Positions 374-55,217 of a stretch of 64,000 bases of DNA are shown here, piece by piece (the stretch's first letter is position 1; every line of letters begins with the position of its first letter). Position numbers and translations under genes: made by a program. The stretch covers positions 930,001-994,000 of the forward strand of contig CAIIXF020000001.1 of assembly GCA_903813345.2 (NCBI GenBank), read 5' to 3'. The stretch comes from Owenia fusiformis. Taxonomy: Eukaryota. The notes beneath the pieces were generated by a model. It ran no database searches and had not been told where the DNA came from. It was given only the letters and a program-made list of their open reading frames with translations.

Positions 374-3300
374 CTGCAATAACAAATATAGAGTTCCCAG
401 CTTGGGTGCAAACAACTAACAAAATATACTAGACACAATATTTGATCCCGTTATTCTAATTTTATATTAAGCATCATAAAGCATTTGTTATGAGAGACAA
501 ATTAACTCATACTGCTATATAAACTGTACCTTGATTGTCTTTGGCCTGCGATACAACATCAGCTTCTGTAGTGACAGTTGTCGTTTTGGGTTGAGTGTCA
601 CCCTCAACACTGGGCTCCCCTGCCCCTCCACTCACCCGGGAATCTGCATTGTCTGGAACTGGACCAGCTCCATTCTTCTCTTTGGAAGACTCTGGAAATA
701 TGCAAATACATCAAATATTGTGAAATGAAAGAACATCTTGTACATACAATGTTAAACTGAATCTAAATGTACTTGACTGTTCTGAAGCTTAAAGCACAGC
801 TTTATCTAGTCTTATAAGTTTACCTGAACTCTTATGTTATTTTCATTATGACTTGAATCAATAATCTTTCATATAAACATTGATGATATGCTATTGTTAG
901 CAACAGATACTATCACTTCCCTATATACTGTATGATTATTGAAGTGCTTCATAAAATTAAACACTGAATCATTACTGACTACACTACACTACATGAATTG
1001 CTTGAAGTTCTTTGTATTCTTGGAAGCATTAACACAGAACAGGAACATAAGCAGTGAAATATGTGTGTTGCACTTTATATAATGATTAATACAAAATATA
1101 TTACGGCAAATAAGCTGTACATTAAATTATTGTGTAGGTTAACCTCTGCTTATGAAACAAAGATTTGATTGATAAATAATTAATTTCTCGCAGAAATGCA
1201 CCAGGGGGTCTTTAACAGAACTTTCGTAAAGTTACGAATTCGCAAGTCAATTGTTAATTTTACGAATTTGGTAAATGTGCATTAACAGAACTTTCGTAAA
1301 GTTACGAACGATTCGCAAAGTTACGAAAAAATGACGTCACGTATGCTTTCGTTCGTAACTTTAATAGCACCTCAGACCCTTTCATAACTTTGCGAATGAC
1401 ACATTTCTCATCCAATTCTTATGTAAGGTATACAGGTTGGCAAAAAGAAATTGTTCTCTATACGCATGCTGAGTTTCAAGCTAAAATATCTACCTATTCT
1501 TACATGATAAGCAAATATGTTCCTGAGCTGGGAATCTTTGAAATCGCGGAGACAGGTTTGATCACAGCGCGCAATGATATCAAATGACATCATATTTTTA
1601 TTTGTGCTAAATAATAATATAAGATGACGTCACAATTTGAAATTCGTTTACGAACAATAAAACTTATGAATGACTTACGAAAGTGTTCTGTTAATGGCCG
1701 ATTCGTAACTTTATGAATTCGTAAATCATTCGTAACTTTTTAAATATTTACGAATTTCATAAAGTTACGAATTACGAATTCGTAACTCTGCGAAAGTTCT
1801 GTTAATGACCCCCAGATTAAGATGTTGCAGTTACAACATTTGCTGGCACTATATCAGCTTGACCAGGCACTGAAAGCCATGCAGAGTCTAGAGGGGTAAT
1901 TAGAGGTTGGAATAAGGCAAATCAAGGCCATGTCTGCAAGTGAAGTTTACTGGAGACTGGACAGGTAATCTGTTGAGGCATTAAGAAGCTCCCTAATTGC
2001 ATGTTCTTGTGTATTCTGTCCACCATCATGCAATGAAAGACACTAATGGATTCCTGCCATAAGCAACAAGGCACCCTTTTAAAATGTTTGATTTTGCTTC
2101 TTTGAAAGAGAACTTTGTCTACTTGAAATATACTAGGCTCTTACCCTCTGTCTACTTAATATACTACAAGGCTCTTACCCTCTGTCTACTTAATATACTA
2201 CTAGGCTCTTACCCTCTGTCTACTTAATATACTACTAGGCTCTTACCCACTGTCTCGTTAATATACTACTAGGCTCTTACCCTCTGTCTACTTAATATAC
2301 TACTAGGCTCTTACCCTCTGTCTACTTAATATACTAGGCTCTTACCCTCTGTCTACTTAATATACTAGGCTCTTACCCTCTGTCTATTTAATATACTAGG
2401 CTCTTACCGTCTGTCTACTTAATATACTAGGCTCTTACCCTCTGTCTACTTAATATACTATGCTCTTACCCTCTGTCTACTTAATATACTAGGCTCTTAC
2501 CCTCTGTCTACTTAATATACTAGGCTCTTACCGTCTGTCTACTTAATATACTAGGCTCTTACCCTCGTCATAATATTTATGTAAAAATGCATTTTTGACT
2601 ACAGTTTCTACTCGAATTTTCAAACATCATAACGTCATGCAAATCTATATAAAATTAGTGTTGCGTCCAGCCCTTGTATGTACAGAAGTACATATGTTTG
2701 TTATAGAGAGAATATTGTAAATGTATAGGGGCCTTAATGCAACACTATTTTAAATGACATTGCTTTTTCATTTAAGGAAGTATTTTGTTAATTACTTCAT
2801 TTGCTATTATAATAAGGCATAAACATGTGGATTATCACCACCTGTCATTTGATACAGTGGCCACTTGTGGTGGTAATATAAAACATGTCACTTTTCAGGA
2901 AGGATTTGGAAGAGGGAACAGTAACCACCCCTCCCCTTGCAAAACACATTTGGAACAAGAATATTCAAAATTGCACCTGCTTTTTGTTTTAAGGAAGTAT
3001 TTTGCCAGACATCAATAAATTTTCTAAGCACTACTAGGTTTACACAACTTCATTATACAATGTACAGCCCTAAAGGGTACATGTGCATGGTTTGCAATGT
3101 TCCAGCCCTAAAGGGTACATGTGCATGGTTTGCAATGTTCCAGCCCTAAAGGGTACATGTGCATGGTTTGCAATGTTCCAGCCCTAAAGGGTACATGTGC
3201 ATGGTTTGCAATGTTCCAGCCCTAAAGGATTCATGTACATCTTTTGCAATGGTCAGAATACTTCCACATCACTTTCCAATTCCATCTGAATCTATATTTC

Positions 3301-6300
3301 CATTATCATCAAGACCCATCAAGAAACATATTACAAATGGACTGAATATTGTCTCTATAGTATGATAATGCTTTGTTTTGATAGTAGCATTCTGTGCCAA
3401 GTTGATTTTGAACAGACACTACATTTTATATGGCAAGATCATTAGTTTGACCCTAAAGCCTGTAAATCAGAAATATATACCACGTAATAAACATTTTATT
3501 TCAACTCCACCTTATCTCAAAGACTACAGTGTTTTCCTTTATACAAGAGTAGATCAAACAGTAGTAGAGTTGCTGTACTCCCTTCACAAAATTTAAGACC
3601 ACTAAGATCTTGTTTATTTTGAAAAATAAAAATTTTCAGAACTTGTATAGTAAATAATTGAATGATACATGATTGGTCAAAAAATAAGAGACTGGAATGT
3701 TAGAAGTAAAAAAGAGTAATTTACATTGAACATTCTCTGCACTATATTTACACAGCCTGTGGGTTACTTAGTCTTGTATCAAGTCAATGTCTTTTTGCAC
3801 TATATTTACACAGCCTGTGGGTTACTTAGTCTTGTATCAAGTCAATGTCTCTGCACTATATTTACACAGCCTGTGGGTTACTTAGTCTTGTATCAAGTCA
3901 ATGTCTTTTCTCACTATATTTACATTTTACACAGCCTGTGGGTTACTTAGTCTTGTATCAAGTCAATGTCTTTTTGCACTATATTTACACAGCCTGTGGG
4001 TTATTAAGTCTTGTATCAAGTCAATGTCTTTTCACACTTTATTTACACAGCCTGTGGGTTACTTAGTCTTTTATCGAGTCAATGTCTTTTCGCACTATAT
4101 TTACACAGCCTGTGGGTTACTTAGTCTTGTATCAAGTCAATGTCTTTTCGCACTATATTTACACAGCCTGTGGGTTACTTAGTCTTGTATCAAGTCAATG
4201 ACTTTTTGCACTATATTTACACAGCCTGTGGGTTACTTAGTCTTGTATCAAGTCAATGTCTTTTCGCACTATATTTACACAGCCTGTGGGTTACTAAGTC
4301 TTGTATCAAGTCAATGTCTTTTCGCACTATATTTACACAGCCTGTCTTTTCGCACTATATTTACACAGCCTGTGGGTTACCAAGTCTTGTATCAAGTCAA
4401 TGTCTTTTCACACTATATTTACACAGCCTGTGGGTTACTTAGTCTTGTATCAAGTCAATGTCTTTTCGCACTATATTTACACAGCCTGTGGGTTACCAAG
4501 TCTTGTATCAAGTCAATGTCTTTTCACACTATATTTACACAGCCTGTGGGTTACTTAGTCTTGTATCAAGTCAATGTCTTTTCGCACTATATTTACACAG
4601 CCTGTGGGTTACCAAGTCTTGTATCAAGTCAATGTCTTTTCGCACTATATTTACACAGCCTGTGGGTTACCAAGTCTTGTATCAAGTCAATGTCTTTTCA
4701 CACTATATTTACACAGCCTGTGGGTTACTTAGTCTTGTATCAAGTCAATGTCTTTTCGCACTATATTTACACAGCCTGTGGGTTACCAAGTCTTGTATCA
4801 AGTCAATGTCTTTTCGCACTATATTTACACAGCCTGTGGGTTACCAAGTCTTGTATGAAGTCAATGTCTTTTCGCACTATATTTACACAGCATGTGGGTT
4901 ACTAAGTCTTGTATCAAGTCAATGTCTTTTCGTACTATATTTACACAGCCTGTGGGTTACCAAGTCTTGTATCAAGTCAATGTCTTTTCACACTATATTT
5001 ACACAGCCTGTGGGTTACTTAGTCTTGTATCAAGTCAATGTCTCCGCACTATATTTACACAGCCTGTGGGTTACTAAGTCTTGTATCAAGTCAATGTCTT
5101 TTCGCACTATATTTACACAGCCTGTGGGTTACTAAGTCTTGTATCAAGTCAATGTCTTTTCACACTATATTTACACAGCCTGTGGGTTACCAAGTTTTGT
5201 ATCAAGTCAATGTCTTTTCGCACTATATTTACACAGCCTGTGGGTTACTTAGTCTTGTATCAAGTCAATGTCTCCGCACTATATTTACACAGCCTGTGGG
5301 TTACTAAGTCTTGTATCAAGTCAATGTCTTTTCGCACTATATTTACACAGCCTGTGGGTTACTAAGTCTTGTATCAAGTCAATGTCTTTTCACACTATAT
5401 TTACACAGCCTGTGGGTTACCAAGTTTTGTATCAAGTCAATGTCTTTTCGCACTATATTTACACAGCCTGTGGGTTACTTAGTCTTGTATCAAGTCAATG
5501 TCTCCGCACTATATTTACACAGCCTGTGGGTTACCAAGTCTTGTATCAAGTCAATGTCTTTACGCACAAATTTACACAGCCTGTGGGTTACTAAGTCTTG
5601 TATCAAGTCAATGTCTTTTTGCACTATATTTACACAGCCTATGGGTTACTTAGTCTTGTATCAAGTCAATGTCTCTGCACTATATTTACACAGCCTGTGG
5701 GTTACTAAGTCTTGTATCAAGTCAATGTCTTTTCACACTATATTTACACAGCCTGTGGGTTACCAAGTTTTGTATCAAGTCAATGTCTTTTCGCACTATA
5801 TTTACACAGCCTATGGGTTACTTAGTCTTGTATCAAGTCAATGTCTCTGCACTATATTTACACAGCTTGTGGGTTACTAAGTCTTGTATCAAGTCAATGT
5901 CTTTTCACACTATATTTACACAGCCTGTGGGTTACTAAGTCTTGTATCAAGTCAATGTCTTTTCGCACTATATTTACACAGCCTGTGGGTTACTTAGTCT
6001 TGTATCAAGTCAATGTCTTTTCGCACTATATTTACACAGCCTGTGGGTTACCTAGTCTTGTATCAAGTCAATGTCTTTTCGCACTTTATTTACACAGCCT
6101 GTGGGTCACTTGTCTTTTGGGGCATGTAAGAATAATCAAAGAACCAAGCACCAGTAGTGGGAGATTGGATACCAAAGTGTATAATTCTCAGTTTTAGTGA
6201 GAGGGTTGCACTTTAGACTAGAGTCAGAGTAAGTTATATCACATTCTTTCATATAGCGGAAGATAATCCTACATTACTGCCCCTGATTCATCTTCCACAA

Positions 6301-9300
6301 ATTTCTGTATATGAATGTAAGAATGTGGACTGATCATGGTAAGCATTTCTATATATCAAAGCAAACATCCATTGCCCTAGTGATCACTTTCATCTAGTAC
6401 TGTAGTAGCCTCTCTGTTTATTTTGGACACCATTCTCTTGTGAGCACCTTTCTGATTGAAATGAGCAGCTTTCTCAGGTGTACATATTCTTGAGTAAACA
6501 GCTTTCTATAGTGAACAGCTTTCTCTAGTGAACACTTTTTTCTTCAATATACATCTTTCACAAAGTAACCCAATAAAAGTCCCAATTCTTTAATTAATAG
6601 CTTTTTCCAGTAGACACATTTCCTAAAGTTAACTCTGATTAACACCTTAACTTTTGAGGAAGATTTGAGATTTTTATCACAGCTTTTCTTGGGAATCAAA
6701 GATCTAGGGCAGCATAAGGATCTGGTGTTATGTTTAGAAGACTAACAAGATGACATGTTATATTTAGAACTTAACAAGATGACACGTTATGTTTAGAACA
6801 CTAACTAGATGACCAATGTTACCCTAAATGACCAAAGATTGGTTGAAATATAATTGTAATTAATCACTCCCAGGCAACATTGATTCATTGCTAGTAGGAC
6901 TCCTCTCCTGTCCAACCACACACTACTGACATTCCTAGCCTCACATTCTGAATTCAGTCAGTGAGATCCAATCAACAAGAGCTGCATGTATATTGTCGAT
7001 AAGCCACTATCAGGTCAGGACATAGTTGATAATTGCCAGATTTAATAGCCACGTCTGGCAATGATTAAATATGAATTATGATCACAGAGAGATTCAACAT
7101 AAAACAACATAGGGCTGGATTGTTCATGAGCTTGGATGCACTAGTTTATACATGTTGCTGTAGTTTGTTGTTTACAAATAACTTAATCATTATTCATTAT
7201 TTGTGAAAGTAAAGCCACCTTACCCTGCTCATCCCTGGCAGTGCTCTTATTCACACAGCAACCCATGATGTCTCACATTTATATACAACTTCTACATTTA
7301 TATTTCCAGTGTAGTATTATCACCAAACATAAATCGCCACATGTATATTAAAGTCTGCCAAGTTACTGTGTATTAGCAGAGCATCTACTTCATCTAACTC
7401 TGTTCCAACTGTTCATTTACAAAGGTCAATTTTAACATTCCAACCTCATACCCCTTCAGTGGTAAGTTAACTTATCAACTTAGCAAGTAAAATAGCATAT
7501 ACATATTGGACTCACTTAATCTAGGGGGTGTTAGCTTGGGATTTTGGTCATGAATGTTTAACTAATCTACTGTGTAAATATACTGAAGTAAGATGACACA
7601 CTTGGTGTATATCATAAACTTCACACACTCATACTTTAAATGCATGATATTCACTGTACATTAATGTTTCACTGATTGTTGTCAATTCGATTAAATGTAA
7701 AACTGTTACAAATCAATGAAACTATATGCATACTTCAGGTTCAGTAAAGGACACACAAAAGACTATACACACATACATAGTACATACATACTATTAAGTT
7801 TTTTAATAAATGAACTATGTATGAAATGGAATATAGCTTTAGAAACAAATTAAAGTTAAAATATGAATCAAATACAATAAGGTTAAAATACATGCAATAC
7901 AATACATGCAATATAATAATGTACAGTATAAAGACATGCAGTACAATTCATGCAGTACAATACATGCAATACAATTCATGCAGTACAATACATGCAATAC
8001 AATGCATGCAATATAAAACTATTACATATGTAAAATACATGCAGTACAAAATATGCAATACAATACATGCAGTTCAATGCATGTTGTACAATACATGCAG
8101 AATGATTAGTATACAAGGACATGAACACTTCATCTACAACTTCATGTTCTTTGAATTGAGCAAATTGTCAAAAGCACACATTAATCCCAAATAGAATGAA
8201 TGAAGTGAACTGACCCTCTAGGTTCAGTAATCAATCAGTGGGGTGTCACTTTACTCTCACAGCATGTATTTGACCCATTTACTTATTAGTGATTTTAGTA
8301 AAAGTGTGCAGAGAGTACTAGTAAGTCTTAACAAGAGAATGGCAAGTCTACAGAGGAGCAAGTCCCAATGAATAATATATTCTTTCCTAAACATGAGGTA
8401 TGAATCAAAGAGACAAATAATGTTTGAAATATGCTCAAAATACATTTTATTCAAGACTGTACTTCAGAGATCTCAGCATTTATGAAAATTCCAGTCTTTA
8501 GGTGGCCACTTTGGATTGTATGAGGCACAATTAATCAAGGCATTAATATGACAAAATATCACCAACTCGTTGCTCACAATATTATGAGTTCAACTGATTG
8601 CGGATGATCTTGAAAAAATTTGTCGATTTGAAGCAAGTTGAAAAATACCTTTTTGACCTTGAGAAGGTCATTGAAGGTCAAATCTCATATCTAAAGTCAG
8701 ATTTCAACTTCTGACAACTTGTAGATGATTTTGAATAAAAGTGGTCAATTTGACACCTTTTTAACCTGTTTTACCTTGAGAAGGCCATTGAAGGTCAAGT
8801 CTTGAATCTAAAAATCAGATTTGAACTTCTGAGAACTTGTGGATGATTTTGAAAAAAAGTTGAAAGTTGAAAAAATACCTTTTTGACTTTTTGTAACCTT
8901 GACAAGGTCATTGAAGGTCAAATCGTAAGTCAGATTTAAACTTCTGAGAACTTGCGTCATGCAGTAATATTAATTTCTTTGATTAAATACATGTATTTAA
9001 AATAATTAAAATATTATATTCTTTAAGTAGAAGCCATTTTGAAGACATTTTTTGTAAATACTAACCATTTATACTTCTTTCCACCAAATATCAAGAAATT
9101 GGGTTATGTTATTGAGTTATGCTCTGGATAGATAGACTGATGGATATAAGGCTTCACTATTATCCCTATGAAACTTTATTCATTGGGATAATAACCACAG
9201 TCATGCAGGTCAATCGAAGGTTTCTATGTTTATCAATGATCATCAGGGGCATTATACAGGGTGCTCCTAAAAGTCATTCACACATCTCTTGAGTCAGCCC

Positions 9301-12300
9301 ATACATGTTAATATAAGGGAGTGTAGGGAGTGCAGTGTGCAGCATTGAGGGGTCTCACCTGTATAAGATAACACTTCACCGGCAGTTAGTGTGTGCGTGC
9401 AGTCGGGTTCAGGTTCCTTAAGGACACCTCGTTTAATAAGTTCTTCTCTACTGGTGCGAACAGAGATTTTACGTTCTAAATCTACAATAGAGGGACAGAC
9501 TTGGAACAACATGGTCAGGGGAAGACAGGGTGTTACATAAGTACAAGTAGCCACTTGATTTCAACTTGGCCAGATTATTTTGAAGCCTCAATTTTGGGCT
9601 AACTGAAGTAGCTTCAACCTTAACCACCTGATTTCCAGCATGTAGGAAAACAGGTGGTTTGAACTGAAATTTTGACCATAATAGATTTGCACTGCTTATG
9701 ACACACCCTGGTTATGGGAGCTTACATTAAGAGAGCTATGTATTACAATAGTAAGATTATGTGACCAAGTACACCTATAAAGGGACCTGAGAAAAAAGGA
9801 AAAAGTTTTATTTGGCAGAAACAGTGGTGCATTTCCATTTATCAATTTGATCAAACCCATTCCTTGTTAAAACAGATGTAGAATTTGATGAACAAGGATG
9901 CAAATGGGATTTTGAGTCAAATGTGAACTAATAATTGTAAGAATTTTGACCAGAAATTCCTGTATAAATAAGAAGCCAATAAAGAAGAATAAAACCCTCT
10001 GAATAAGAGAAAAATATAACAGCCTTAATATGAAAAATACCATCTTCCATCTACAAACAACCAGGAAACATAAAGAAACATATAAAAGACAAACACAGAT
10101 AAGGTGATAAACTTATCACACTGTGAAATAAAATTTGGAACAAATGATAATATTGTTGTTGATAATTGGTAACCATAGTGACAAATTCCTATCTGATAAT
10201 AGTAATACACAAAAGAAAGTTATCAAAAATACCACGAGACCAGAAACAATCATTATGGTATTATGAGTTGTTATTGTAGTGTATGTAGTAAAAATATTAT
10301 TATTGAGTTGTGATATTATCATTTTGGCAATTGAATTGCCATGGCAATATCTCTGCATGTTTTGTACATTCATTATTGATTACTTGAGCTTTATCGAAGT
10401 AGCTTGTATAAAGCTATTTTGGCAATCAATTTCCATATATGGATATGTATATATACATAATACATGTATGCGGTTGTATAGCACCTTTTGATTGGGTGCG
10501 GGTGGAGCCGCCGGGTGTGCAGATCTTGGTGGTAGTAGCAAATATTCAAACTGTTAACCTTCAATCAAACAATCAACAAGTGAAAAGAAGATGTCCATTC
10601 CATCAGATATAATCACATGTTGAAAGAACAAGACACAGAGTGATAAATATTACACTTTTAGAGGCAAAATGACCACCATATATGTTATCCAGGACACCCA
10701 AAACCCAATCAGATCTTGACGCTGCTATGTTTTTTCTGTAAAATTCAAGTCAACACACAAGCAGTTTTCCTGGTATTTTGATGAGGTTTATGTGGCACAA
10801 AAAAGATGACAATAAAAATATAACAACATCAGCATGACTGGCACATGACTGTCTGATAATGAACCATATGCTATAAAGATAGGTAAATAGATGGCAGCAC
10901 ATGTGTTGAGAGGGCCAGAATATCTTTCATAATATACAGACAACTGGCAAAAGGTCACTTAATTTATTGATTTATCAAGTATTTCCATTTGGATAAACTT
11001 AAAACACCATTGGAATATAACTTTATTAAATTGTTGATATGCAGATTGTGATCAAAATTGTGATGCCTAAAAGAGTTAATGAACTTGGTGCTCTCCCCAG
11101 GCTTTTTTCTTAGGTGGGTGCAAAATTCTCATTTTCACAATTCAGACAAAAATTGGTCGTAATATGCCAATTTTTATGAATTTTCTCATTTTCAAGTAGG
11201 TGCAAATGGATTTTCAAGTGGGTGCAAGCCTATTTTCAAAATCTCAAGTGGAAGGTGCACCCACTTGCTTTAATACTGGGGAGATCACTGGAACTTGCAA
11301 AGATTTTTAAAATGTAAATTGTGTCAAGTGGCATTTTTTCTGAAAACTCAAAAATCCTGGAAATTTGGATAAAGGTAGACAGGTGCAAATCAAGGTTGTT
11401 TTAATAAAAAATTACTCACAAAATACAGATATGTCATCAAAAAGAAGAAAATGATTGTCTTTGCTTAAAAATGCAGATCTCCTAAAATCTCATGAATACT
11501 AGACTTCAGCGAGATTTCAAAGCTATTTACCAAACCTTCTACTGCCACGAGTGCTTGGCCTTGTCCACTATACAAGTTAAGTTATATTAACGAACACACT
11601 CAGGCTTTCCATCACTGAGCCATGTTGTATGAACAACAAGATCCTTTAAGAATAGGAATACACCATATACTTAGCAGCAAGTTAGCCATTTTACAAGGAT
11701 GAAATGCTACCATGGTTACTAACACTACCTTGGTGATGTTACCCTGGTTACTCAATACAATCAGAAGAATTGTTATCAACCAAGGAACAAGGAAAACCTC
11801 TAAATACAAAATTTCATACTCTAGTTAGATCAATCAACTACTTTATATTATATACTGTTAGTGTACAAAATGCTACATTAAACCAAGACAAAGACAGAAA
11901 TCAAACAAGAACAAGTTACATTTAAAACTATACTATTAAAAAATGTTGAACATACCAACTGCAGTTTTTTCTATTTTATCACTTTTCTTTTTTCGCCTCC
12001 ATTTCCATGGTTTAAATAAATTCCTTAAATTGTATAATTTTCCTTTGTGTTCTTTCTGTTGCCCAGATGCCTTCATATTATCAATAGAACTGGACCTAGT
12101 AGCGCCATTCTGTTTCTCTTTTTCTGAAAATACAAATTTTACATATTTCACAAGAATCAATATAAATCAAAAGCATTAAATCAAATGCTATCAATGATCT
12201 CCAGGTTGTACATTGTGCCATTAACTAGCGCAGTTGGAGCATCAAATCCCATCAAAACTTCATCTTCTTTTATCTCAGCTTTTCATAATGAAAAATGAAA

Positions 12301-15300: not shown

Positions 15301-18300
15301 TATACAGGTAGCAAAGAGTGTGCTAATAGTGTTAGCCTTTTGCCGTCAGAAAGTATTTTGACCCACTTTTGAGATATAGTGTCCGAAAAGTAGGTCAACA
15401 TGAAAGTTTCTCCAAATTTAACGTATGAGTTATGAATTAAGGGTAGAATTTTCTCAGGAATCCGAATCTGCAAATCAAATTTCAATCCGACACCTGGTTT
15501 GGAAGTAATGGCGTTTTGAAAAATTAAAAAATTGGTATTTTGATATCCCATGTTATGTCAATTATCTTTGTCACTATTCGGCATTATTCCTTTATCTTTT
15601 TTTCAGCATGTAGCTTAAAGACAGTCCTTTCATTATTGTAACTGTCTTTTTTGATTACTCTTACCGATTTTGAGGAATGGCGTCCGGAAAGTAGGTCAAC
15701 ATAAAAAGTTCTCAAAATTTAATGTATGAGTTATGACACAAACGTAGAATTTTCTCAGAAATTCGAATCTGCAAACCAAATTTCGACCCAAATTCTGGTT
15801 AGATAGTTATAGCTGTTTGAAGTCTCGAAAAGTCGATATTATGATATCCCCATGTTAAGCCAATGTAGACGAAGATAAGCTACTTAAGAGTTGTCTAAAT
15901 GTCTGTATTCTGGATGACTCAGCTTATTCTGAATGGCTCAGCTTACAGTATTTTGGATGACTCAGCTTAAAAAAAGTTTTAAATCTGGAGTCTTAAATTG
16001 AACTTGTTCAATTTACATGTCTAGTTATGTGTACAACATAAGAAACATTTCCAGAAAGCACAATTGAGAAGTTTATTGCTTTCTAACGTGACATGCAAAG
16101 CCAGGCCGCAGTCCTTTAAAAACCCTAATTATGACCTCACTCCCTTACAAATACCAAAGATAACTCAAAATGGTATCATAGTCTCATTTCCTCATGTTGA
16201 AGTCCTGCTGTACATATATGCAGCTAGCTTTGTGTTAAGATTCTCCCCCATACTTCATCCTTCCACTATCTTTTCTGTTCTCAGCAAATCATGAAGATGG
16301 GCAACAGAAGTGCTTAATGCAAGACTACATGAAGTGTTACATATAGTCCCTGATGTCCCCAGCAGTTACTCTAACCAAGAAGCTTGGTTCAGAGAAGACC
16401 TGATCATTTATAGATCAGCAAAGTGATTCAGCAAGCAAATCAAGGGTATCAATACCATGTACTTTAAGTATATGTTAACTTTGATGGAAATGCATATAAA
16501 TATATATGCATGATATGTGCATATCTACATATTATGAGAGAATAAGGCAATTTAAGAGTTTTGAGATATAGATGAAGTTCTTGAAGAAAGTTGCAAAGGA
16601 GAAGGAAAGGCAGTTACCGTATACAGAATGCAAATTGCATTTATAAAGTTAAAACAGGTTTTGGCTAAAAACCGAAATCACTTACACTAATACATTTCTG
16701 CTTCATTAAATCCCTATTTAGGAACAGTTCAGTTTTATTTGCACTATGAATAGCAGATTATTACAAAACATTACTAAAATCACATCCTTTTTTAATCGGT
16801 CCCTACAAAATAACTTATCATCATCTTGTATGAGGTGTGGGGTTCTAACGCTCATGTTTTCCACATAGTTTTGGCATCAGATGCAAATTATTAGTTAAAC
16901 CCAAAAATCAGTCTTACATTTCTTTTTCTTTTATGGAACTAGGGCTGATCCTTCCTGTATGCTTTTAAATCTTATAAATCTATCTTTCATGTAAACATTT
17001 GTCAGATTTGCTGAAACCTTACATTTCTAGTTGTTGAGTCAACTTTAATATATGACCTTACCATAAACAGTTAATGTTTCAGTATGTTAATGCAATATCC
17101 CACCAACATCATGCTGGGGCTTTAATTTTGAACATTATCTCATTGACACCATGACAGGGCTTTAATTTTAACCATTATCCCACTGACACCATGCCGGGGC
17201 TTTAATTTTGACCATCATCCCACTGACATCATGCTGGGGCTTTAATTTTGACCATTATCCCACTGACACCACATCTGGGCCTTAACCATTATAAAAAGGT
17301 ATATCTGGATTAAAAGTGATTTACTGAGCAACTAAATATAAAGTGAACTTGAGAAAATCGTAAAACACAATTTAGGCTCTTACTTGCTTATAAAATGTTT
17401 TTATGACTGCTCTTTAAACTTACAATGTGATCAAATCATGATATCAAACAAAAAAACAGTGTTAGAATATCCTCTTTTACAATATACCTTTTAATTTCTT
17501 TTCCTTTTTCTTGGATTTCTTTTCAGCTACCTCCCCTGTAGATTTCTTCCTTCTAAACTTCATTTTGAAAAATATCGATCATGAGTGTTCTATTACTGTA
17601 TACATTTCAATTTTAGCTACAGTTTCTTTTCAAACAGTCTTTTTAAAAGCCACTTTGATTTCTATAAAGCCTTGAACACATGAGATTTATCTATAACTTG
17701 TTGTAGTGTACTGTATAGTATACCTCCAATGAGGCCTATGTCACAAATCCACAAAATAACTTTTTATGTCAACTTTTAACAATTAGGTGACTTCTAGTGT
17801 TCTCCATCTCATATTTGAAGTAAATGTTTGTTCAGAGGTACAGCCAACTGATGAGGATGTTAATCTTGTATTTCTTAGTGAGTACACTCCCTGTTATGTC
17901 CAGTTAAACTTATGCATATTGGCAAAGAGTCAAGCCATCAATGAGCACTAGAGCCTCTAGAGGTGAAAGTTGAAGGCTAAATAAACAAACTAAATGATAT
18001 ATGGACTGAGATGGAGCTTTACTTGTTACGGACACTGACATGGATGAACCTAAAGATATCATTAGAAAGTTTAATAACAATGTGACCCTATAACTAATTA
18101 AATTATGGAGTGAATCCAAAACTGGGACAAATATAGATTTTCAACAATATTTAAATGATAAACATTCACTGTGGTCTAGCTCTGAACAACTGCAGTTTCC
18201 TCCTATACCCAAAATATACAACAAACAACTCGATATTGGTCATAGTTTACTAAATCTATTTTTATTTGATATCGTTTAAATTTGATTCATCAATTTGTTA

Positions 18301-21300
18301 ACTTCTCAGCCACTTATTTAAGATGTATGGTTTTGCAAATAACTGATCTCCAACCCAGAGTGTTAACCATTGAGATCACTTGACTTGAGGAATGTACTGT
18401 AAAACATTTATACACTTGAAAATCTCTTTTGAAGGGCTTTTTATTATCTTCATGTATTATACCATGTAAAGAGCAGCTTAAAAAGGGCATGTGCTGCAAA
18501 AATACTTTTGATTTAAGAAAACTGAGTTTGAGGGCATCGAGTGATCAGTTTGCAAACTATAGAAATTTTAATTCTGAACTGTTTATTTCAGAATATGAAG
18601 GTTTTACAGTATTTATATTATACCTGATCTTAGCCTTAGTGCAATACAGAACAAGTCTTCACAATTCACATGTCAATGAAATGTCAATTGACTCAGTTTC
18701 TATAAATAATCATATTAATAGGAAATGCAAAAAGGAACAGGTGAGCCTGCTTTTAATCAAAATTAATAACTTAAGTAGTTGCAACATACAAATTCAGTCT
18801 TCACATAACTTTAAAATGAATATACCTTAGAATATATGCCTTTTTAGACTTCTTTTAAAAAATGAAAGATTGCATCACATTATGTGACATTAGATGAGGT
18901 AAAACTAAATAGCAAAGGTAAACTAAGCTTGTATTCACAAATGCAACTTTTATAACTTAAATAGCTGAGGTAAACTAAGCTTATATTCACAAATGCAACT
19001 TTTATAACTTAAATAGCTGAGGTAAACTAAGCTTATATTCACAAATGCAACTTTTATAACTTAAATAGCTGAGGTAAACTAAGCTTGTATTCACAAATGC
19101 AACTTTTATAACTTAAATAGCTGAGGTAAACTAAGCTTGTATTCACAAATGCAACTTTTGGCTATCGGCTACCAGATTAAGCTACTATTTTATGACAAAC
19201 TCATATAAATATAAGTTAATCCAGTATCCAACAGAAAGTTGAAAGTTGCATTCGCGAATACAAGCTTAAAGAGAGGCAAAATAAAATAGGAGACACAAAA
19301 TGTAAGCCAAAGAAAAATATTTTTGCTCTTATGGGCTAAAACTTTTCAGAATTCAAAAGAAATCCCCAAAAGTTATTTTCTTAAAAGTTTTAACTGTGTT
19401 TAAAATCTTCTGCCACCCTCTAACTGCAGAACCTCAGCATCCAGAATATCTACTTTCTCTCTCATTGGGAAGAAAGAAGAATGAGTGATGCCCATATTTG
19501 AATGTCTAATGTTATCTTGTGTGCTTGCTATTACTCATGTGCTAATTAACACACATATAAGATATTAAATATCTATTATTAGAAGATACCAATCACTTCA
19601 TATTACTGATACCAAGTTATAGTACAAATACATACCATTTGAATTCATTACAGGTACAAATTCCAGAGATAGGACATATAATGAAAAGTAACTTAACAAA
19701 TGACATTATACTAAAATATCTTGACTGACATCTATTTTGGATTTCAGGAACTAATTGCATACTTCTCGGGTGATATTCTAAAAAATATTACAGTAAAGAG
19801 AATATAATATTATGACAAATGACAAAGAGCTTCTAATGTTGAACTTTAAAGTTGAGACTAAAATAAAAAGTATTTAGTCTCAGGTTAAAGGATTCACCTA
19901 TATGAAGGCATTTACTCATTGTGCAGAATTCCTTTGTCAAATCAACCACAGATCGATACAAGCAGAACAAGATTGAAATATCAAATGGACTGAATTCAAA
20001 AAGTACATTCATTCTATAAGATTAATAGCAGAGATTGTCATTGTGATTCTAAGTTAAGTCAACCTCCGTCTCAATAACTTAGTATCCCATGAATATCATT
20101 TGATTTTAGTTGCAGAGAAATGCCCACGTTTCTGAGAAGTCTTGTCTCAATATAAACGGTAACAATTAAAAACTGTGCCCTATTGAAGTGTTTAACTTAG
20201 GCCATAAGAAGTAGATTCTTTGTTTTGCGTCCCCTTGCTTGCACGATTTTGAGTAAATCAGAAAAAACAAACACATCAAAATAGCAATCACAAGGGTCTG
20301 AAAGTACCATTACATTTCGTTCAATCAGAATCAGACGAAATGGCGGATAATTTGATGTGCGTCAAAATTGACAGTGTTATAATTATTTTGGCATACATTG
20401 TGTATTTTCTTATTTTTTACCCTTGAAGTTTAAATATATTGTATAAAATGTATAGATATGTGTTTGTAATCACTGCAAATTGGTACCGGTATGTCATCCC
20501 TTCTTATGCCCATAAAATGTATACATTTCTCAGCAAACAAGTTTGTGTTTTTTCTTGAGTTTGTATTTGTTTTCCTTGTACCCTTGCATGATTTGGATTT
20601 TGCCAGGACGCAAAACAAAGAATCTACTTCTTATGGCCTTATATCAATTACAAGATAAGAAGAGAGCATGTTGACTGATTCAGATTGTAACTTTGACAAA
20701 ACATATTCTTTCTAGACTATGTCAGCTGATATGCATTACTTGGCTATGTTAATCACACTGAGATAACTAAAATTAACATTAAACCTAATAATGTTTTTAT
20801 ATATCACTGGGAATGAGTATAGATTTTTATAAAATGATTAAAAAATATTTTTAGCCTTACAAAGACAAACTAATCCAGTCTGCGAATGATTTATTTGATT
20901 AAATGATTGGCTGTCAAAAAATTGGATCTCTTTAGCTCTGAATATTGGGTCTTGTGTCATATTGACACTTGCGTAGAAATTGAAACTAGAAACGATGGAG
21001 ATCTTTTTGCCCTTGCTACATGGATTTAAAGAGCAATGTTTAATTCGGTTGAAATATTTACTTAGATTATTGTTTTCATGTTTTCTGCAACATTGGGAGA
21101 GTATTCCCATGTTTAAACGTAAACCATGATACCATGGTATACCATGGTTTACCATGGTCTATCATGATTAGCAATGAAATTACCATCAACTCTGACCATG
21201 GTGGCAATGATGTTTTTTTGGTCAATTTTTGACCATGGTATACCATGGTATATCATGTTATACCATGTTTCATGGTATTTCATGTCCAAAGTTTGCCATC

Positions 21301-24300
21301 AAATGCCATGGTATTTTATTGCCATGTTCCTGACCATCATTTACCATGGTATTACCATGGTATATCATGGTTGATTGCATTTCATGGCATTTCATTGTAA
21401 GGTGTGACAATCAAACGCCATGGTATTTCAATTCCATGTTCCTGACCGTAATTTACCATGGTATATCATGGTTGATGGCATTTCATTATAAGATATGACA
21501 ATCAAATACCATGGTAATACCATGGTATTTCATTGCCATGTTCCTGACCATCATTTACCATGGTATTACCATTGTATATCATGGTTGATGGTATTTCATT
21601 GTACAATTTGACAATCAAATGTCATGGTCATACCATGATATTTGATTGTTATGTACCTTACCATCATTTACTATGGTATTACAATTGTATATCATGGTTG
21701 ATGACATTTCATGGCATTTCATTGTACCGTTTGACAATCAATTACCATGGTCATACCATGTCATTTCATTGCCAAAATCATAACTCTCATTTATCATGGT
21801 TTTATCATTGCATTTCATGGTTGGTGGTATTTCATGGCATTTTATTGTCAAACCTGACCATCAAATACTATGGTCATACCATGGTATTTCATTATCCCAT
21901 CGAACGAAGTTCGGAGGGATATAGGGAACGCCTCCGTCCGTCCGGCCGTCCGTCCGTCCGTCCGTACGTCCGTACGTACGTACGTACGTCCGTCCGTCTG
22001 TCCGTCCGGGCAATAACTCAAATACCGTTGGCCCGATTTTGTTCATATTTTGTACACATATACCCTATGGGGGTAGAAGTTCTGCTCGAAAGCCGATTTT
22101 CAAAATTGCTGCTCATTTCAAAATAACGGCCATTTTAGTGCCGATTTTACAGTAATTTAGGTGCAATATGTAAAACTGTAATAGCAATATGTTTTAAATG
22201 TAAAAAAATTATAAAAGACATTAATAATGCTACAAATGTAGATATTAAAGAAGCACATGGCAGCCATCTTGAAAAATGGTCGCCTTTACTCGTCATTTTA
22301 TGATTTTTGCTGTAACTCAAAAAATAGTGGAGCGATTTTGTTCATATTTGGTATGTGAATACTATAAGCATTGCACACTGTCTAAAGACACTTTTGGTAG
22401 AAGGCGGCCATTTTGAAAAATGGCCGCCATTCTAACGTATTTTACTATAACTCGAAAAGTAGTGGAGCGATTTTGTTTATATTTGGTATGTGAATACTAT
22501 AAGCATGACACACTGTCCTATGACATTTTTGGTAGAAGGCAGCCATTTTGAAAAAAATTTTGAAAAATGGCCCCCATTTTAACGTATTTTACTATAACTC
22601 GAAAAGTAGTGGAGCGATTTTGTTCATATTTAGTATGTGAATACTATAAGCATGGCACACTGTCCTATGACACTTTTGGTAGAAGGCGGCCATTTTGAAA
22701 AATGGCCGCCATTTTAACATATTTTACTATAACTCGAAAAGTAGTGGAGCAATTTTGTTCATATTTGGTATGTGAATACTATAAGCATGGCACACTGTCT
22801 ATTTCTAATGACACTTTTGGTAGAAGGTGGCCATTTTGAAAAATGGCCACCATTTTAACGTATTTTATTATAACTCAAAAAGTAGTGGAGCGATTTTGTT
22901 CATATTTGATATGTGAATACTTTAAGCATGGCACATTGTCTAATAAAACTTTGGGGAGTAGTCGGCCATTTTGAAAAATGGCCACCATTTTTATGTGTGT
23001 TATTTTACAAGTACGTGTGTAATTTTTCAAAAATTTTAGAGGTAGCTACTTAAAAGCATATTATTTCTCCTAATGACAACTTGGCTAGTGAGCAACCATT
23101 TTGTAAATGGTGGCCTTTCTGGTGTGTTGTTTTATGATATTTGCTATTCGTTTGTAAAAATGCCAGCTATTTCTGTTCGATGGGATTCGCTACGCTTTGG
23201 CGTTGCCGTTGTTCTGGTTGCCATAATCATAACTATCATTTATCATGGCATATCATTGCATTTCGTGGTTGATTGTATTTCATAGCATTTCGTTGTCAAA
23301 CCTGACCATCAAATACCATAGTTATACCATGGTATTTCATTGCTAAAAAGAACTCTACAAGAGTCTCAAGTCTAAAATTGGTCAGAGTTGAAATGGATCA
23401 TGAAATGCAATGAAATACCACGTTTAACCATGAAATGCAATGAAATACAATGATTGATCATGATGTGCAATGTAATGCAATGGTCTTTCTTGCAATGCAG
23501 TGAAATACAATGAAAGGCCATGTTCAAAAAGTATTTTTTTACATGAAATATCTTTATTAATAAATGTTAATTAGATAACCAAATTATTATAATTAATGAT
23601 TCTGATATTCATCAAAATCAGAACTTTATATACTTTTGTTCCTTTATTTAATAAATTAATTTCTATTATGAATAATTAAGTTGATAACCCTAGAAACAAA
23701 TTTGTTTTTGTTAAACAAATATGCTTTACTTTTATTTGACTGTTGTCGGTTAAATAGGAGATCAACTTGGTATTTTGTAAGTCAAACCTCCAGTCTTCGA
23801 TTATATATCTTGACTGTACTTCATTGCATTTGATGGTTTGCAACCATGAAGTACTGCAAAATAGCAGTATTTTTAAATGCAAAATTTTAAGTATAGTTTC
23901 CACGGTATACCATTGTAGATCGTGATGATTAAATGGCTCCATTGCATATCATGGTTAAATGTCTAGACCATGGTATCACTGCATTGATGGTATTTGACCA
24001 TGAAATACTGTGAAACGGTGGTATTTTTTAGATACAAAATTACATGTTAATTGACCATGGTATACCATGGTATATCATGATCGTTAAATGGCACCATTGC
24101 ATTTCATGGTCAGGAGCATTTTTTAACATGGAGTTTCCCATTGAAAAAATACTGCCGTTTCACAGTATTTCATGGTCAGAAACCATCAAATGCAATGATA
24201 TCATGGCCGAGAACTTGACCATGATATCATTGCATTTGATGGTTTCTGACCATGAAATACTGCGAAACGGCAGTATTTTTTCAATGGAAAACTCCATGTT

Positions 24301-27300
24301 AAAACGCACTGTTAACAATGAAATGCAATGGTGCCATTTAACGTTCATGATCGGCCATGGTATTACCATGGTATTTCATTGCATTTCATGGCCATATACC
24401 TTGGTATACCATGGTCATACCATGGTATACCATGGTATGGCCATGGTCCATTTTAACATGGTATGGTATGATTGGAAATACAAGTTATTCTGCTGTGATG
24501 CAAAACTATGGGGTTCAGGATTGAGAGACAATGAGGGGGGGGGGTAGGGACTGAGGGAGGGGGCTGGATATGTTATTGTTGAAGAAATCAACTCAGGAGG
24601 GGGTCTGTATGTTATTCTTATTCCACCAGTCTTCTACCAAAATCAATACTATAAATATAAGATACCCAAAACAAGATGCAATTGGTCATTTCTTATCACA
24701 TGACGTTTTAGATGAGACCTTCTTTGTGAAATATCTCCACCTATGAAGATAATCATTTTAGAGTGATATGTGTGGTATAATTAAGTCAACAATTATTATG
24801 TGATATTCTGTTCAAGCTGAAGTGCATTACTCCCATTTTGGAGTTTCCTACTGACAAATTAAAACTCAAGACACAAAGATACAAACTATCTGACTGCAAG
24901 AAATGTTTAGATAAACAATAACATTTGGAACTAGTCAGGACTAACTAAATTTTTTTATTTACAATACAATATACAGAAATAATAACAATATTAGTGATCT
25001 CCCCAGCATTAAAGCAAGTGGGTGCAGCATCCACCTGAGATTTTGAAAATAGGCTTGCACCCACCTAAAAATCCATAATTGCACCCACTTGAAAATGAGA
25101 AAAGTCATGAAAATTGGCATATTTTGACTAATTTTGGTCTGAATTGTGAAAATGAGAATTTTGCACCCATTTGAGAACAAATCCTGTGGAGATCACTGAA
25201 TATGTCACCATATCTCTCATAGAACTAAGTACAATGTATTGAACAAGCATATCTGAACAAGTCACCAGGTAAATCTTATTTTTCAATGTTAAACCTATAC
25301 CTCTCTCCAAAACGCAATATATGAACATAAATTATTTTTCCATTTTTATACGACTGAAGAGATAATAAATGCTTAAATATAAATTTGACGTAGATATAAA
25401 CGTTTTTATGCGTAAAATTAAAGCATAACCATTAACTTAAAAAATAAAAAAAGAAGATGCCAGGATTCGAACCCGGACCGTCACAGTGACAGGCGAGGAC
25501 TTTGCCACTGTGCTACCTGGGCATTGGATATACATGCATGTAATTTAAGGGGATTTATTTAAACTTCTTTTTAGTAAGTCACGTGACATTCTAAATTTAG
25601 AAATCTTCGAAGAAATTTGTTTACCGGCGAACCTCTGAGCAAGTGCATGAACAATCGTCAAAATAACATCTTTATCGTGAGTATTTCTTCACAGTATTTG
25701 CTCCATTTGTTCATTATTGTATATGTTCTCATTAAAGCACAAAATATTACCAGGGACCCCAGGAACAACCTAAGATTGTGTTTTGGAGAGAGGTCCGGCT
25801 TTAACTGATTGCTACTTTTAAAGATTCTTAAAAAAGATTAGTTACCACTCAATCATTGTTTTGAAACTGTGAAAAAAGAAAAAAGAAATTTTGTAAAATT
25901 AAAACTGTTGAAGAACATTGACACTGCTCCATCTACAATGTAAATTCTTTAAAAAAACACTCACAATTCATAATATTGAAAGAACATATTCTCAGCGCTC
26001 TCTCTCCAGCTTAGTAGAAGTAGAAGTGAAAAGTACAAGTGAGATATAGTACCAAAGTGAATAACTGAGTAACCAGTGTCCAAATGCAGCATTACAGTGC
26101 CAATAGTGTCACACGGATGCTTAAAGGATCAAGAAGAAGAAAATATCACATATCCCCCCCTTTTTGGGCTCACTTCGCTTACAGTGATGCAAACACAAAA
26201 ATTAGCACCCCCTTAACAATTGCTGGCTATCTCCCTGACCATGTATTTAGTAAGATTAAACATTTATCATCATGATGCCATTGCAAATAATATTTGAATC
26301 CAAGGTGGTCATTAGCATAATTTGTCCCTCTTCTTTTACCATGTCCAATGAATATCAACCCATTGTACACAAATTACCCTCAGTGGGTGTTAAACACACC
26401 TGTTAGTTACTTTGTATTTGAAGGTGGGCATAAAATGACAAAAGGTGATTTGCCACATGATCACTAGGCCTAAAGGCTGAGGGTGTGGTGACAGTGTTCT
26501 GTTTGTTACAATAACATATCAATTCAACTTGATTTGATAAGTGCTTTTGGAAAATGGCACGTTTTATAATTGCATTCTTATAAAACTAGGAAATTATCAC
26601 TAAAAAAGAAAGCGTTTATCTACACCCTACTAGTCTATTTCTATTTCTTCACTTCCTGATTTTTTCTAAAAAAATGACAAAAAAGACAAAAAAAATGTGG
26701 ATGAATCGTAAGTCACCTGTCGAGAACTAATACTGAGAAAAATGAATGAATAAATACCGGCATCAATCTTTAAAGTATTCACAGCTTCTACTTGAGGATG
26801 TGGATCACTGGAACTACGCTCCCGCTCAATATTTGGAGAACCTTCCATTTCTGTTTTGGTCGCCATTACTGAAAATTTACATGACAAGGTGTCACAGAAA
26901 CTTTGATATGATTATTTTTGTCAAATATGAACTATTTGTCCTGTTTTTTAGATATACACCTAAGAATGATTTGTAGGAAGGATTTTCTCTAGCAATATTT
27001 TATGTGATTGTGTGGTACAATTTATATTTCACATCTAGATAGAGTCTAGTCAATTTGTAAAATAATCGTCGTGGATTAATTAGAGTGGTCTGAACGAAAT
27101 AAAACATTCCCCGGGAATGTGAACTGACCATAGCATGATCCCTCTAAACCCTAGATGCCCGGGCCTAGATGTGGGTCAATTTCATTGAAAAAAAATCACT
27201 GAAGATATTTTGAATTTCAACAATTTTGAAGTAGATTCATGTGGGAGAGTAGAACGTATTGATGGGAACTATATATATTGTGGGAAAATTTCATTTTTTG

Positions 27301-55080: not shown

Positions 55081-55217
55081 GAGAAATGAGCGAAATGTTA
55101 ACGTTAACATACGTGTATCAAGACAGTGACCAAATCACTCATTCACTGTCATGCATGATGGAATCAATTGTTCAGAACTCATTTCACCAAAAAAGATAAA
55201 AAAATATATCTCATCAA

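Follow-up and report, generated by a model that had tools for sequence, protein, structure and literature searches.

A candidate internal first exon in the PHACTR gene of Owenia fusiformis and the predicted lipid-anchored isoform that it would encode

PHACTR proteins confer on PP1 a specificity towards cytoskeletal substrates, and their location in the nucleus, in the cytosol or at membranes decides which targets are dephosphorylated. In the portions of the literature available for this analysis, the sole device described so far for targeting a PHACTR protein to membranes is a basic-hydrophobic KPWKW peptide. The locus described here raises the question of whether the PHACTR gene of Owenia fusiformis can also be expressed from an internal first exon, which would remove that peptide and put a very different N-terminus in its place. 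An earlier note on this DNA had proposed a hidden exon of this kind, with a Met-Gly-Cys-Cys start. The window referred to below is the whole stretch of 64,000 nucleotides that was analysed, and all exons of the gene discussed here lie on its minus strand.

The annotated Owenia gene belongs to the PHACTR family. Its annotated protein, P0001, contains RPEL repeats (Pfam PF02755, 85.7 bits against a cut-off of 23, in 3 stretches), and in the C-terminal RPEL/PP1-binding region, encoded outside the window, residues 440-610 are 66-76% identical to proteins named phosphatase and actin regulator. Exons 1-5 of P0001 map to the window with 92-100% identity per exon. The coding part of exon 1, the first exon of the long isoform (MATKTEMEGSPNIERERSSSDPHPQ...), is found at 26758-26866. 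Exon 2 (11956-12123) carries the basic-hydrophobic KPWKW motif, LFKPWKWRRKKK, and exon 3 (9359-9481) carries RPEL1, LERKISVRTSREELIKRGVLKE, and ends in phase 1 with CAG followed by the donor GTGAGA; the PHACTR N-terminal arrangement, with KPWKW in one exon and RPEL1 in the next, is therefore present. Exon 4 (530-691) has a phase-1 acceptor preceded by CAG, opens with an AG that completes a Glu codon, continues with SSKEKNG and is 100% identical to P0001. Exon 5 (209-373, V-STPEVPP...QQKDT) also matches P0001, and the remainder of the gene lies beyond the window. Phase 1 was found at 6 of the 6 exon ends examined in this gene. For Owenia, the records contain a single PHACTR protein, the long isoform P0001, which forms a cluster of one; searches of proteins of 29-93 and of 94-2000 residues with the exon-4 peptide found no record besides P0001.

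The candidate alternative first exon lies in the 8668-nt intron between the RPEL1 exon (ending at 9359) and exon 4 (starting at 691), on the gene's own strand, with its coding part at 7224-7266. Read on the minus strand from 7266, its codons are ATG GGT TGC TGT GTG AAT AAG AGC ACT GCC AGG GAT GAG CAG, where the ATG occupies 7266-7264, and its final base is the G at 7224. The 43 nt comprise 14 codons plus one base (phase 1); the codons translate as MGCCVNKSTARDEQ, and the extra base opens a split Glu codon. The splice donor, GTAAGG at 7218-7223 with AGG on its exon side, agrees with the consensus at -3, -1 and +1 to +5. When the G at 7224 is joined to the AG that opens exon 4, the product is Glu, which is the identical junction residue in P0001; the candidate is phase-1 compatible with exon 4, whose acceptor would be common to it and to the RPEL1 exon. 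The open reading frame, donor and phase match claimed in the earlier note are thus confirmed on the minus strand, and the exon positions bear out its statement that the candidate lies downstream of both the KPWKW exon (12123-11956) and the RPEL1 exon (9481-9359), the two exons that the candidate isoform would skip.

The immediate context of the ATG includes an A at -3 and a G at +4 (Kozak positions) and an in-frame TGA 3 codons upstream. The possibility that 7266-7224 is an internal cassette exon was considered and excluded, because of this upstream TGA and because the nearby AGs are not preceded by a pyrimidine tract. The flank is AT-rich and nearly devoid of CpG, and no clear promoter signature was found in the sequence flanking the candidate exon. 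TATA-like words upstream imply a start site very near the ATG, or even beyond it; such words are frequent in DNA as rich in A and T as this, and they stand at an awkward distance from the ATG. Upstream ATGs are found at about 7297 and 7279, each followed directly by a stop codon, and at about 7330 and 7342, and all of these would be upstream open reading frames if the start site lay further upstream.

The presence of several ATGs within 130 bases lends some weight to the idea that the stretch is transcribed without being a productive coding first exon, either as an enhancer- or promoter-associated RNA or as a transcript that is degraded or left untranslated owing to those ATGs. Ten small public sequencing runs whose library type is not recorded contain 0.08-0.92 of the words sampled from the 301 bases at 7150-7450, which include flanking intron; this serves as a lead only. 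No run recorded as RNA was listed for these bases, a blank that carries no information on expression. A noncoding role nevertheless seems very improbable, given that the two nearest ATGs are closed off at once and that the open frame, phase, Kozak context, donor and comparative pattern (see below) are as expected of a coding first exon.

A second alternative is that the exon is a chance open reading frame, in which the ATG, the Cys codons and GTAAGG are fortuitous and Owenia makes the annotated long isoform and perhaps others. Chance expectation was measured with 3000 first-order Markov shuffles of the intron that holds the candidate. Phase-1 mini-ORFs running from an ATG to a GTRAG donor numbered 7.1 on average in the shuffles, and the candidate is the sole one in the real intron. 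A mini-ORF of this kind with any MG start appeared in 14% of shuffles, one with a Cys at residues 3-6 and a fit to a PROSITE-type myristoylation pattern in 0.33%, and one starting with MGCC in 0.03%. On both strands of the real window, 187 ATGs have a frame that stays open as far as a GTRAG donor, whatever the phase; 11 of them have an MG start, and just one of the 187, the candidate exon, fits the myristoylation pattern. The sequence ATGGGNTGY occurs once in 128 kb (the window, both strands), at the candidate site, and the 301 bases surrounding the exon are unique within the window.

The rarity of this motif class in shuffled and real sequence argues against a fortuitous origin. On the other side, the motif was chosen post hoc from a very large scan, the flank offers no clear promoter signal, no Owenia transcript or protein record with the candidate N-terminus was found, and the Owenia peptide does not align convincingly with the 8-12-residue peptides of its relatives. 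An exact search of metagenome_contigs with the 43-base exon gave 0 matches. Evidence independent of the discovery route also speaks against chance: in six other lophotrochozoan species the same type of isoform has been modelled, with an MG start, an early Cys, the same junction and the same skipped exons.

Five of these models come from gastropods: Littorina saxatilis X2 (P0009, XP_070196011.1), starting MGSSCLSKESVKES; Haliotis rufescens X4 (P0256, XP_046364168.2), starting MGSACWSQESVKES; Patella vulgata X5 (P0322, XP_050402312.1) and Patella caerulea KAK6179651.1 (P0319, a non-RefSeq annotation), both starting MGCSCFSKEAVEEE; and Pomacea canaliculata X6 (P0344, XP_025111264.1), starting MGCSCLSKESVKEL. 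The sixth is from the nemertean Lineus longissimus, X10 (P0359, XP_064624258.1), and starts MGTGCCSKCLCRDSVKEE. In the gastropods 8 N-terminal residues are isoform-specific, and in Lineus 12, with the MG start followed by a Cys at positions 3-6. Past this unique N-terminus, 5 of the 6 models are identical to the long isoform of their own species from the exon-4 homologue onward. The P. caerulea model, which has no own-species sibling, was compared with the P. vulgata long isoform, and shows the same junction with one substitution shortly after it. Identity begins exactly at the homologue of Owenia exon 4 ([DE]-[SA]-V-[KE]-E), directly after RPEL1, so that both KPWKW and RPEL1 are skipped, and the acidic junction residue, E or D, is retained as in Owenia (Glu). 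An alternative start in Octopus, MGIFKLPHLSTICCGKKFN, gives N at the junction of the short isoform where the long isoform has D, exactly the difference that a phase-1 split codon predicts. This analysis collected 368 PHACTR relatives with a length of 300 aa or more. Of the 71 that lack a KPWKW-type motif, 6 start with MG and have a Cys within residues 3-7; of the 297 that have the motif, none does.

Isoform models from five gastropods and a nemertean, all with the same junction, thus support the claim that a hidden first exon would give a PHACTR protein devoid of RPEL1 and the basic motif. The exon is very likely real in Owenia, because its position, strand, phase and MG-Cys start match this lophotrochozoan isoform class. 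The Owenia isoform is a prediction, and the isoform type is already present elsewhere as uncharacterised automatic gene models; no published functional description of these models was found in the literature pairing PHACTR with acylation. The Owenia peptide differs from the others in being longer (14 aa versus 8-12), in having adjacent cysteines, Cys3-Cys4, and in being unannotated. What it shares with them is little more than the MG, a Cys and nearby Lys and Ser, and with 14 residues and so little in common its homology with the relatives' exons is not provable; the MG-Cys starts could be convergent. Among the matches listed, which represent 25 of 120 clusters, three large ones of them in part, the MG-Cys isoform was not seen in the bivalves Mya, Mercenaria, Ruditapes, Crassostrea virginica, Saccostrea, Mizuhopecten, Mytilus and Dreissena, in the annelids Ridgeia and Lamellibrachia, or in the chiton Liolophura, Biomphalaria, Tubulanus, Branchiostoma and Ixodes.

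The lack of an Owenia record for the candidate must be weighed against the state of the annotation, which a second exon shows to be incomplete. At 17488-17563, also on the minus strand, lies another unannotated candidate alternative first exon, MKFRRKKSTGEVAEKKSKKKEKKLK plus G, with the donor GTATAT and phase 1 towards exon 2. In type and in position it resembles first exons of the M(R/K)(L/F)RRKK kind, which occur in isoforms from molluscs, annelids and nemerteans, and it serves as a positive control: a conserved MKFRRKK-type exon at the expected place and in the expected phase is likewise missing from the Owenia annotation. This gap and the models from six other species leave a chance open reading frame a quite unlikely explanation. 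The single-isoform annotation of Owenia would then be without at least two conserved alternative first exons, a point of relevance to expression studies in this evo-devo model.

If the exon is real, does its N-terminus act as a lipid anchor? In the Owenia peptide Cys3 and Cys4 adjoin Gly2, and a Cys beside a myristoylated Gly is a typical palmitoylation site, for example in Src-family kinases and G-alpha-i/o. When the PROSITE-type myristoylation pattern G-{EDRKHPFYW}-x(2)-[STAGCN]-{P} was matched as a regular expression, both the Owenia sequence G2-C-C-V-N-K and the Lineus peptide conformed to it. The five gastropod peptides fail the pattern because their position 6 is L, F or W, and the Octopus peptides fail it as well. 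The gastropod failures suggest that the conserved function may be S-acylation alone, or something else.

These failures, in 5 of the 5 gastropod MG-Cys peptides, also favour an alternative in which the exon is real and yields a truncated PHACTR without KPWKW and RPEL1, and in which the N-terminus is no lipid anchor, or undergoes S-acylation only weakly or transiently. All that this N-terminus would then do is supply a start codon for a short isoform, the key property of which is the loss of the actin-gated module for nuclear and membrane targeting. Consistent with this idea, unrelated starts are found at the same junction in Littorina X3 (MLDKRMTD), Pomacea X5 (MVNINIRSGE), Patella X4 and Lineus X9, so that truncated forms as such arise repeatedly. 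The available text on the alternative start exons of human PHACTR1 likewise makes no mention of a lipid motif (PMC5994109). Against it, six species of two phyla, and Owenia as well, share an MG start with an early Cys despite otherwise free drift in this disordered region, which points to selection on exactly those residues. The confinement of MG-Cys starts to forms without KPWKW, and the fit of the Owenia and Lineus peptides to the myristoylation pattern, argue in the same direction. We regard a non-anchoring N-terminus as rather unlikely.

The explanation that we favour, and consider probable, is that a conserved, unannotated first exon gives rise to a 491-aa isoform in which an N-myristoyl/S-palmitoyl anchor replaces the basic, membrane-binding, actin-gated N-terminus. 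According to this model, the intron that separates the RPEL1 exon from exon 4 contains an alternative first exon, at 7266-7224, that the public annotation has missed. Transcription would start just upstream of it, and splicing would join 7224 to 691. The predicted isoform of 491 residues would consist of 14 new residues followed by residues 134-610 of P0001. It would lack the N-terminal 133 residues, including KPWKW and RPEL1, and retain the C-terminal part with its RPEL repeats and PP1-binding tail. After removal of the initiator Met, Gly2 would be N-myristoylated co-translationally, and Cys3 and Cys4 would then be S-palmitoylated at membranes. Lipids, rather than the electrostatic, G-actin-gated N-terminal module, would hold the PP1 cofactor on membranes and exclude it from the nucleus, and promoter choice would set how and where PHACTR/PP1 is targeted. 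We infer that the exon is transcribed in Owenia, that both lipid modifications occur and that localisation is affected; the lipidation is predicted from the N-terminal motif.

The earlier note had described this isoform as swapping actin-regulated targeting for constitutive membrane anchoring. The first half of that description stands, in that KPWKW and RPEL1 would be skipped. The second half needs amendment, because the KPWKW peptide that would be lost is itself a membrane-binding device, as in phactr3: the swap would be of one membrane device (electrostatic and actin-gated) for another (lipid), and not a gain from none. In addition, since the C-terminal RPEL repeats are retained, actin regulation of PP1 binding should persist.

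A broader possibility is that promoter choice constitutes an ancient two-way targeting switch in the PHACTR genes of trochozoans (annelids, molluscs and nemerteans), with upstream KPWKW/RPEL1 forms on one side and an internal, lipid-anchored MG-Cys form on the other. The upstream forms would bind membranes electrostatically under G-actin gating, and the form from the internal promoter would be permanently lipid-anchored while its PP1-binding C-terminus was still actin-regulated. This proposal is tentative, and we think it on balance doubtful. If it is true, the gene has PP1/PHACTR activity resident at membranes as a distinct and conserved output. Quite apart from the MG-Cys forms, MGQ-type N-termini were seen on 11 PHACTR representatives, 10 of which have KPWKW. 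Judging from these N-termini, N-terminal acylation may be more widespread in the PHACTR family than has been noticed. No report of an acylated PHACTR protein was found in the literature pairing PHACTR with myristoylation or palmitoylation, as judged mostly by title; in the portions of these papers that were available, the acylation terms concern different proteins or the absence of such a site from phactr3. The MG-Cys isoform, if real and acylated, would be a second, covalent route of PHACTR/PP1 to membranes, chosen at the level of the promoter.

The proposed anchor has well-known counterparts outside the PHACTR family. In Src-family kinases and G-alpha-i/o, N-myristoylation of Gly2 is followed by S-palmitoylation of a neighbouring Cys, which results in stable membrane attachment. 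Lck, Fyn and G-alpha-i/o resemble the Owenia peptide in that Met-Gly is directly followed by Cys. The likeness is restricted to this motif, and the Owenia candidate differs in that its cargo is a PP1 regulatory subunit and its lipidation is predicted.

Within the family, human PHACTR1 provides a precedent for N-terminal diversity: as far as the available text of Codina-Fauteux et al. 2018 (PMC5994109) goes, alternative start exons give rise to long, intermediate A and B, and short transcripts. The human and Owenia genes are thus alike in having several promoters or first exons that lead to differing protein N-termini, those of Owenia being predicted. They differ in that the Owenia candidate has an MG-Cys start, which has no stated equivalent in that text, and in that the start of the short human transcript (144 aa) lies far downstream of where the Owenia isoform would begin. 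An internal Phactr1 cassette exon in mouse brain (PMC13545012) is unrelated to the candidate first exon.

A functional parallel is with vertebrate Phactr3/scapinin and Phactr4. As described in the available portions of Itoh et al. 2014 (PMC4236165) and Fedoryshchak et al. 2020 (PMC7599070), these proteins are targeted to the plasma membrane via their extreme N-terminus, the peptide GRIFKPWKWRKK, and the KPWKW-type peptide of phactr3 is a direct membrane anchor that binds acidic lipids; the authors say that phactr3 is without fatty-acid attachment sites (PMC4236165). Owenia exon 2 encodes the same motif (LFKPWKWRRKKK). Plasma-membrane targeting of a PHACTR/PP1 cofactor through its N-terminus would be common to the vertebrate proteins, so far as these portions describe them, and to the predicted Owenia isoform, and it is from the membrane role of the phactr3 peptide that the functional logic of one anchor lost and a different one gained is drawn. 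In the same accounts, the vertebrate device is of an electrostatic and hydrophobic kind; it binds directly to acidic phospholipids and overlaps a nuclear import signal controlled by actin. The Owenia candidate isoform drops the KPWKW peptide and would use covalent lipids instead.

The window is AT-rich animal DNA (35.6% G+C), and the translated exon 689-531, used as a query, gave a single protein match at 100% identity. This protein, P0001, is the annotated long isoform of 610 aa from Owenia fusiformis; it carries the name 'Phosphatase and actin regulator' in its sources, is the sole member of its cluster and contains three RPEL repeats (Pfam). Alignment of P0001 to the window by tblastn, with boundaries read from the sequence, places five exons on the minus strand: E1 (26866-26758, MATKTE...), E2 (12123-11956, LFKPWKWRRKKK), E3 (9481-9359, RPEL1, LERKISVRTSREELIKRGVLKE), E4 (691-530, AG and then SSKEKNG) and E5 (373-209, V-STPEVPP...QQKDT). 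All of the mapped exon ends are in phase 1.

The earlier note proposed a hidden first exon at 7224..7266 with an MGCC start, and the sequence bears this out. On the minus strand, the ATG at 7266-7264 is followed by GGT TGC TGT, ten further codons and an extra G at 7224, directly after which comes the donor GTAAGG; the encoded peptide is MGCCVNKSTARDEQ. Around the ATG, position -3 is A and position +4 is G, and an in-frame TGA lies three codons 5' of this start. The exon sits in the 8.7-kb E3-E4 intron, and the exon map confirms the claim that it is downstream of the exons for the KPWKW motif (E2) and RPEL1 (E3). E4 begins with AG preceded by a CAG acceptor, so that the final G of the candidate exon and this AG form a split GAG codon (Glu), and the phase compatibility with exon 530-691 likewise stands. 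Splicing to E4 would give a predicted product of 14 + 477 = 491 residues, from which residues 1-133 of P0001 are absent. A search of protein records found no shorter fragment bearing the exon-4 peptide, and there was no exact match to the candidate exon in metagenome contigs. Among the sequencing runs listed for 7150-7450, none that contains the stretch is recorded as RNA. Ten small public runs from 4 studies, of 46-368 million letters and with no recorded library type, contain 0.08-0.92 of the sampled 7150-7450 words, flanking intron included, which could reflect open chromatin, RNA or plain DNA.

The E3-E4 intron also holds a 58-bp minisatellite at 3739-6110, with about 40 copies matching at 93% and with 174 and 230 as higher-order periods, and smaller arrays occur at 13-134 (41 bp), 2116-2566 (31 bp), 3058-3251 (38 bp) and 7887-8100 (28 bp). 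In the E1-E2 intron, minus-strand stop-to-stop ORFs form several families of short repeated ORFs around 21000-24000 and 18880-19160; examples are YSHTKYEQNRSTTFRVIVKYV, about four times at 22370-23050, and a repeat spaced 52 bp at 18883-19161. All are probably dispersed or tandem repeats. Farther away, a Tc1/mariner-like transposase remnant on the minus strand (53895-55134) is broken across two reading frames, with HTH_38/HTH_32 in one ORF and DDE_3 in the next.

By itself, the phase match to E4 is weak evidence, because all introns here are in phase 1. In 3000 first-order Markov shuffles of the E3-E4 intron, ATG-to-GTRAG phase-1 open ORFs numbered 7.1 on average, versus one in the real intron, the candidate exon itself, and an MG start of any kind appeared in 14% of shuffles. 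The start is much rarer when specified more closely: MGCC was found in 0.03% of the shuffles, and an early Cys combined with the PROSITE-type pattern for myristoylation in 0.33%. Across both strands of the real window, in any phase, 187 ATGs are open to a GTRAG donor; 11 of these have an MG start and one, the candidate exon, fits the myristoylation pattern. ATGGGNTGY occurs once in the 128 kb of the two strands, and the candidate-exon stretch is not repeated within the window. Because the motif was picked after the fact in a very large scan, these rarity figures alone are not decisive. A chance ORF nevertheless seems improbable when the isoforms of other species are considered.

A search for relatives with residues 440-610 of P0001, its conserved C-terminus, matched 5589 proteins at E-values up to 1e-10, and the comparison covered the best 120 cluster representatives; a full HMMER scan of representatives added 150 rows. 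Among the matches listed in the representative scan, the closest to the Owenia protein (E 7e-105) is P0004, a 639-aa JGI protein from a 2671-base contig; it has an identical RPEL1 stretch (KTAVDLERKISVRTSREELIKRGVLKE) and a start of the MRLRRKKK type, and probably represents an environmental transcript from a different annelid-like animal.

One cluster representative, Littorina saxatilis X2 (P0009), lacks KPWKW and begins MGSSCLSKESVKES. Isoforms of one gene are concealed within 90% clusters, and therefore 25 of the 120 clusters were opened, three large ones through 15/21, 15/18 and 15/16 of their members. Starts with Met-Gly and an early Cys (MG-Cys) were found in Haliotis rufescens X4 (P0256, MGSACWSQESVKES), Patella vulgata X5 (P0322) and Patella caerulea KAK6179651.1 (P0319; both MGCSCFSKEAVEEE), Pomacea canaliculata X6 (P0344, MGCSCLSKESVKEL) and the nemertean Lineus longissimus X10 (P0359, MGTGCCSKCLCRDSVKEE). 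Programmatic comparison with long siblings showed that only the first 8 residues (12 in Lineus) are isoform-specific; identity begins right after RPEL1, at the exon reading [DE]-[SA]-V-[KE]-E, homologous to Owenia E4 (E-S-S-K-E). P. caerulea, compared with the P. vulgata long form for want of an available long sibling of its own species, shows the same junction and one substitution soon after. In the opened clusters (25/120), the MG-Cys type was not seen in eight bivalve genera, the chiton Liolophura, Biomphalaria or Haliotis asinina, nor in Tubulanus, Branchiostoma, Ixodes or the annelids Ridgeia and Lamellibrachia.

In Octopus, isoforms X8 of O. bimaculoides and X11 of O. sinensis join a longer alternative start (MGIFKLPHLSTICCGKKFN in the former) to this exon junction, where the residue is N versus D in the long form, as a phase-1 split codon predicts. 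This start (P0055, P0118 and P0305; O. bimaculoides X8 and X2, O. sinensis X11) has MG, a Cys-Cys pair and then basic residues, and does not fit the myristoylation pattern.

The MG-Cys type exists in public protein records as uncharacterised automatic models from six species, so that the Owenia exon is a new, unannotated member of the set. Its absence from the annotation is uninformative, because the Owenia annotation, judging from comparison with other isoforms, omits one or more further conserved alternative first exons. Basic M(R/K)(L/F)RRKK starts joined to the KPWKW exon occur in many isoforms of molluscs, annelids and nemerteans, and a regular-expression scan found one ORF of this type on the window's minus strand, at 17563-17488 (MKFRRKKSTGEVAEKKSKKKEKKLK plus G, donor GTATAT). 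This candidate first exon sits in the expected place, the E1-E2 intron, is phase-1 compatible with the KPWKW exon, and resembles the corresponding exons in isoforms of Mytilus, Lamellibrachia, Lineus and others. The MGCC exon is very probably a real, conserved alternative first exon.

In Src-family kinases and G-alpha-i/o, the classical context for palmitoylation is a Cys beside a myristoylated Gly. The Owenia peptide fits the PROSITE-type pattern, G-{EDRKHPFYW}-x(2)-[STAGCN]-{P}, at Gly2 (G-C-C-V-N-K), as does that of Lineus; the five gastropod peptides fail it on account of L, F or W at position 6. Unrelated short starts also join the same junction (Littorina X3, Pomacea X5, Patella X4, Lineus X9), and these, with the gastropod failures, make the lipid reading less secure. 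What is conserved chemically may be S-acylation instead of dual acylation. Of the 368 PHACTR relatives of at least 300 aa that were collected, 71 have no KPWKW-type motif, and 6 of these begin with MG and carry a Cys among residues 3-7; of the 297 with the motif, 0 do. This distribution fits replacement of one module by the other.

Eleven PHACTR representatives (P0137, P0139, P0149, P0154, P0162, P0165, P0173, P0179, P0186, P0197 and P0209) have MGQ starts, resembling vertebrate PHACTR2/PHACTR4 N-termini. KPWKW lies about 50 residues downstream in ten of them, and two fit the myristoylation pattern; the available portions of the PHACTR4/PHACTR2 literature searched did not mention N-myristoylation of such N-termini.

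The exons bypassed by the candidate isoform encode the KPWKW peptide and RPEL1, and their skipping together with an acylation-type start suggests a module swap: the short isoform would exchange an electrostatic, actin-gated targeting module for a covalent lipid anchor and retain the C-terminal RPEL repeats and PP1-binding tail. The accessible part of one study reports direct binding of acidic phospholipids by the phactr3 peptide GRIFKPWKWRKK, which is needed for plasma-membrane localisation, and states that phactr3 has no palmitoylation, prenylation or myristoylation sites (PMC4236165). That the Owenia exon is real and also acts as a lipid anchor is, on balance, likely. No description of an acylated PHACTR was found in the available portions of the literature searched on PHACTR, PHACTR2 and PHACTR4 with myristoylation/palmitoylation. 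The predicted Owenia isoform would represent a conserved, testable and apparently undescribed route for targeting a PP1 cofactor. Human PHACTR1 is documented to use alternative start exons, as far as the accessible text of PMC5994109 goes, and a lipid-anchored PHACTR would be akin both to PHACTR alternative-promoter isoforms and to dual-acylation N-termini.
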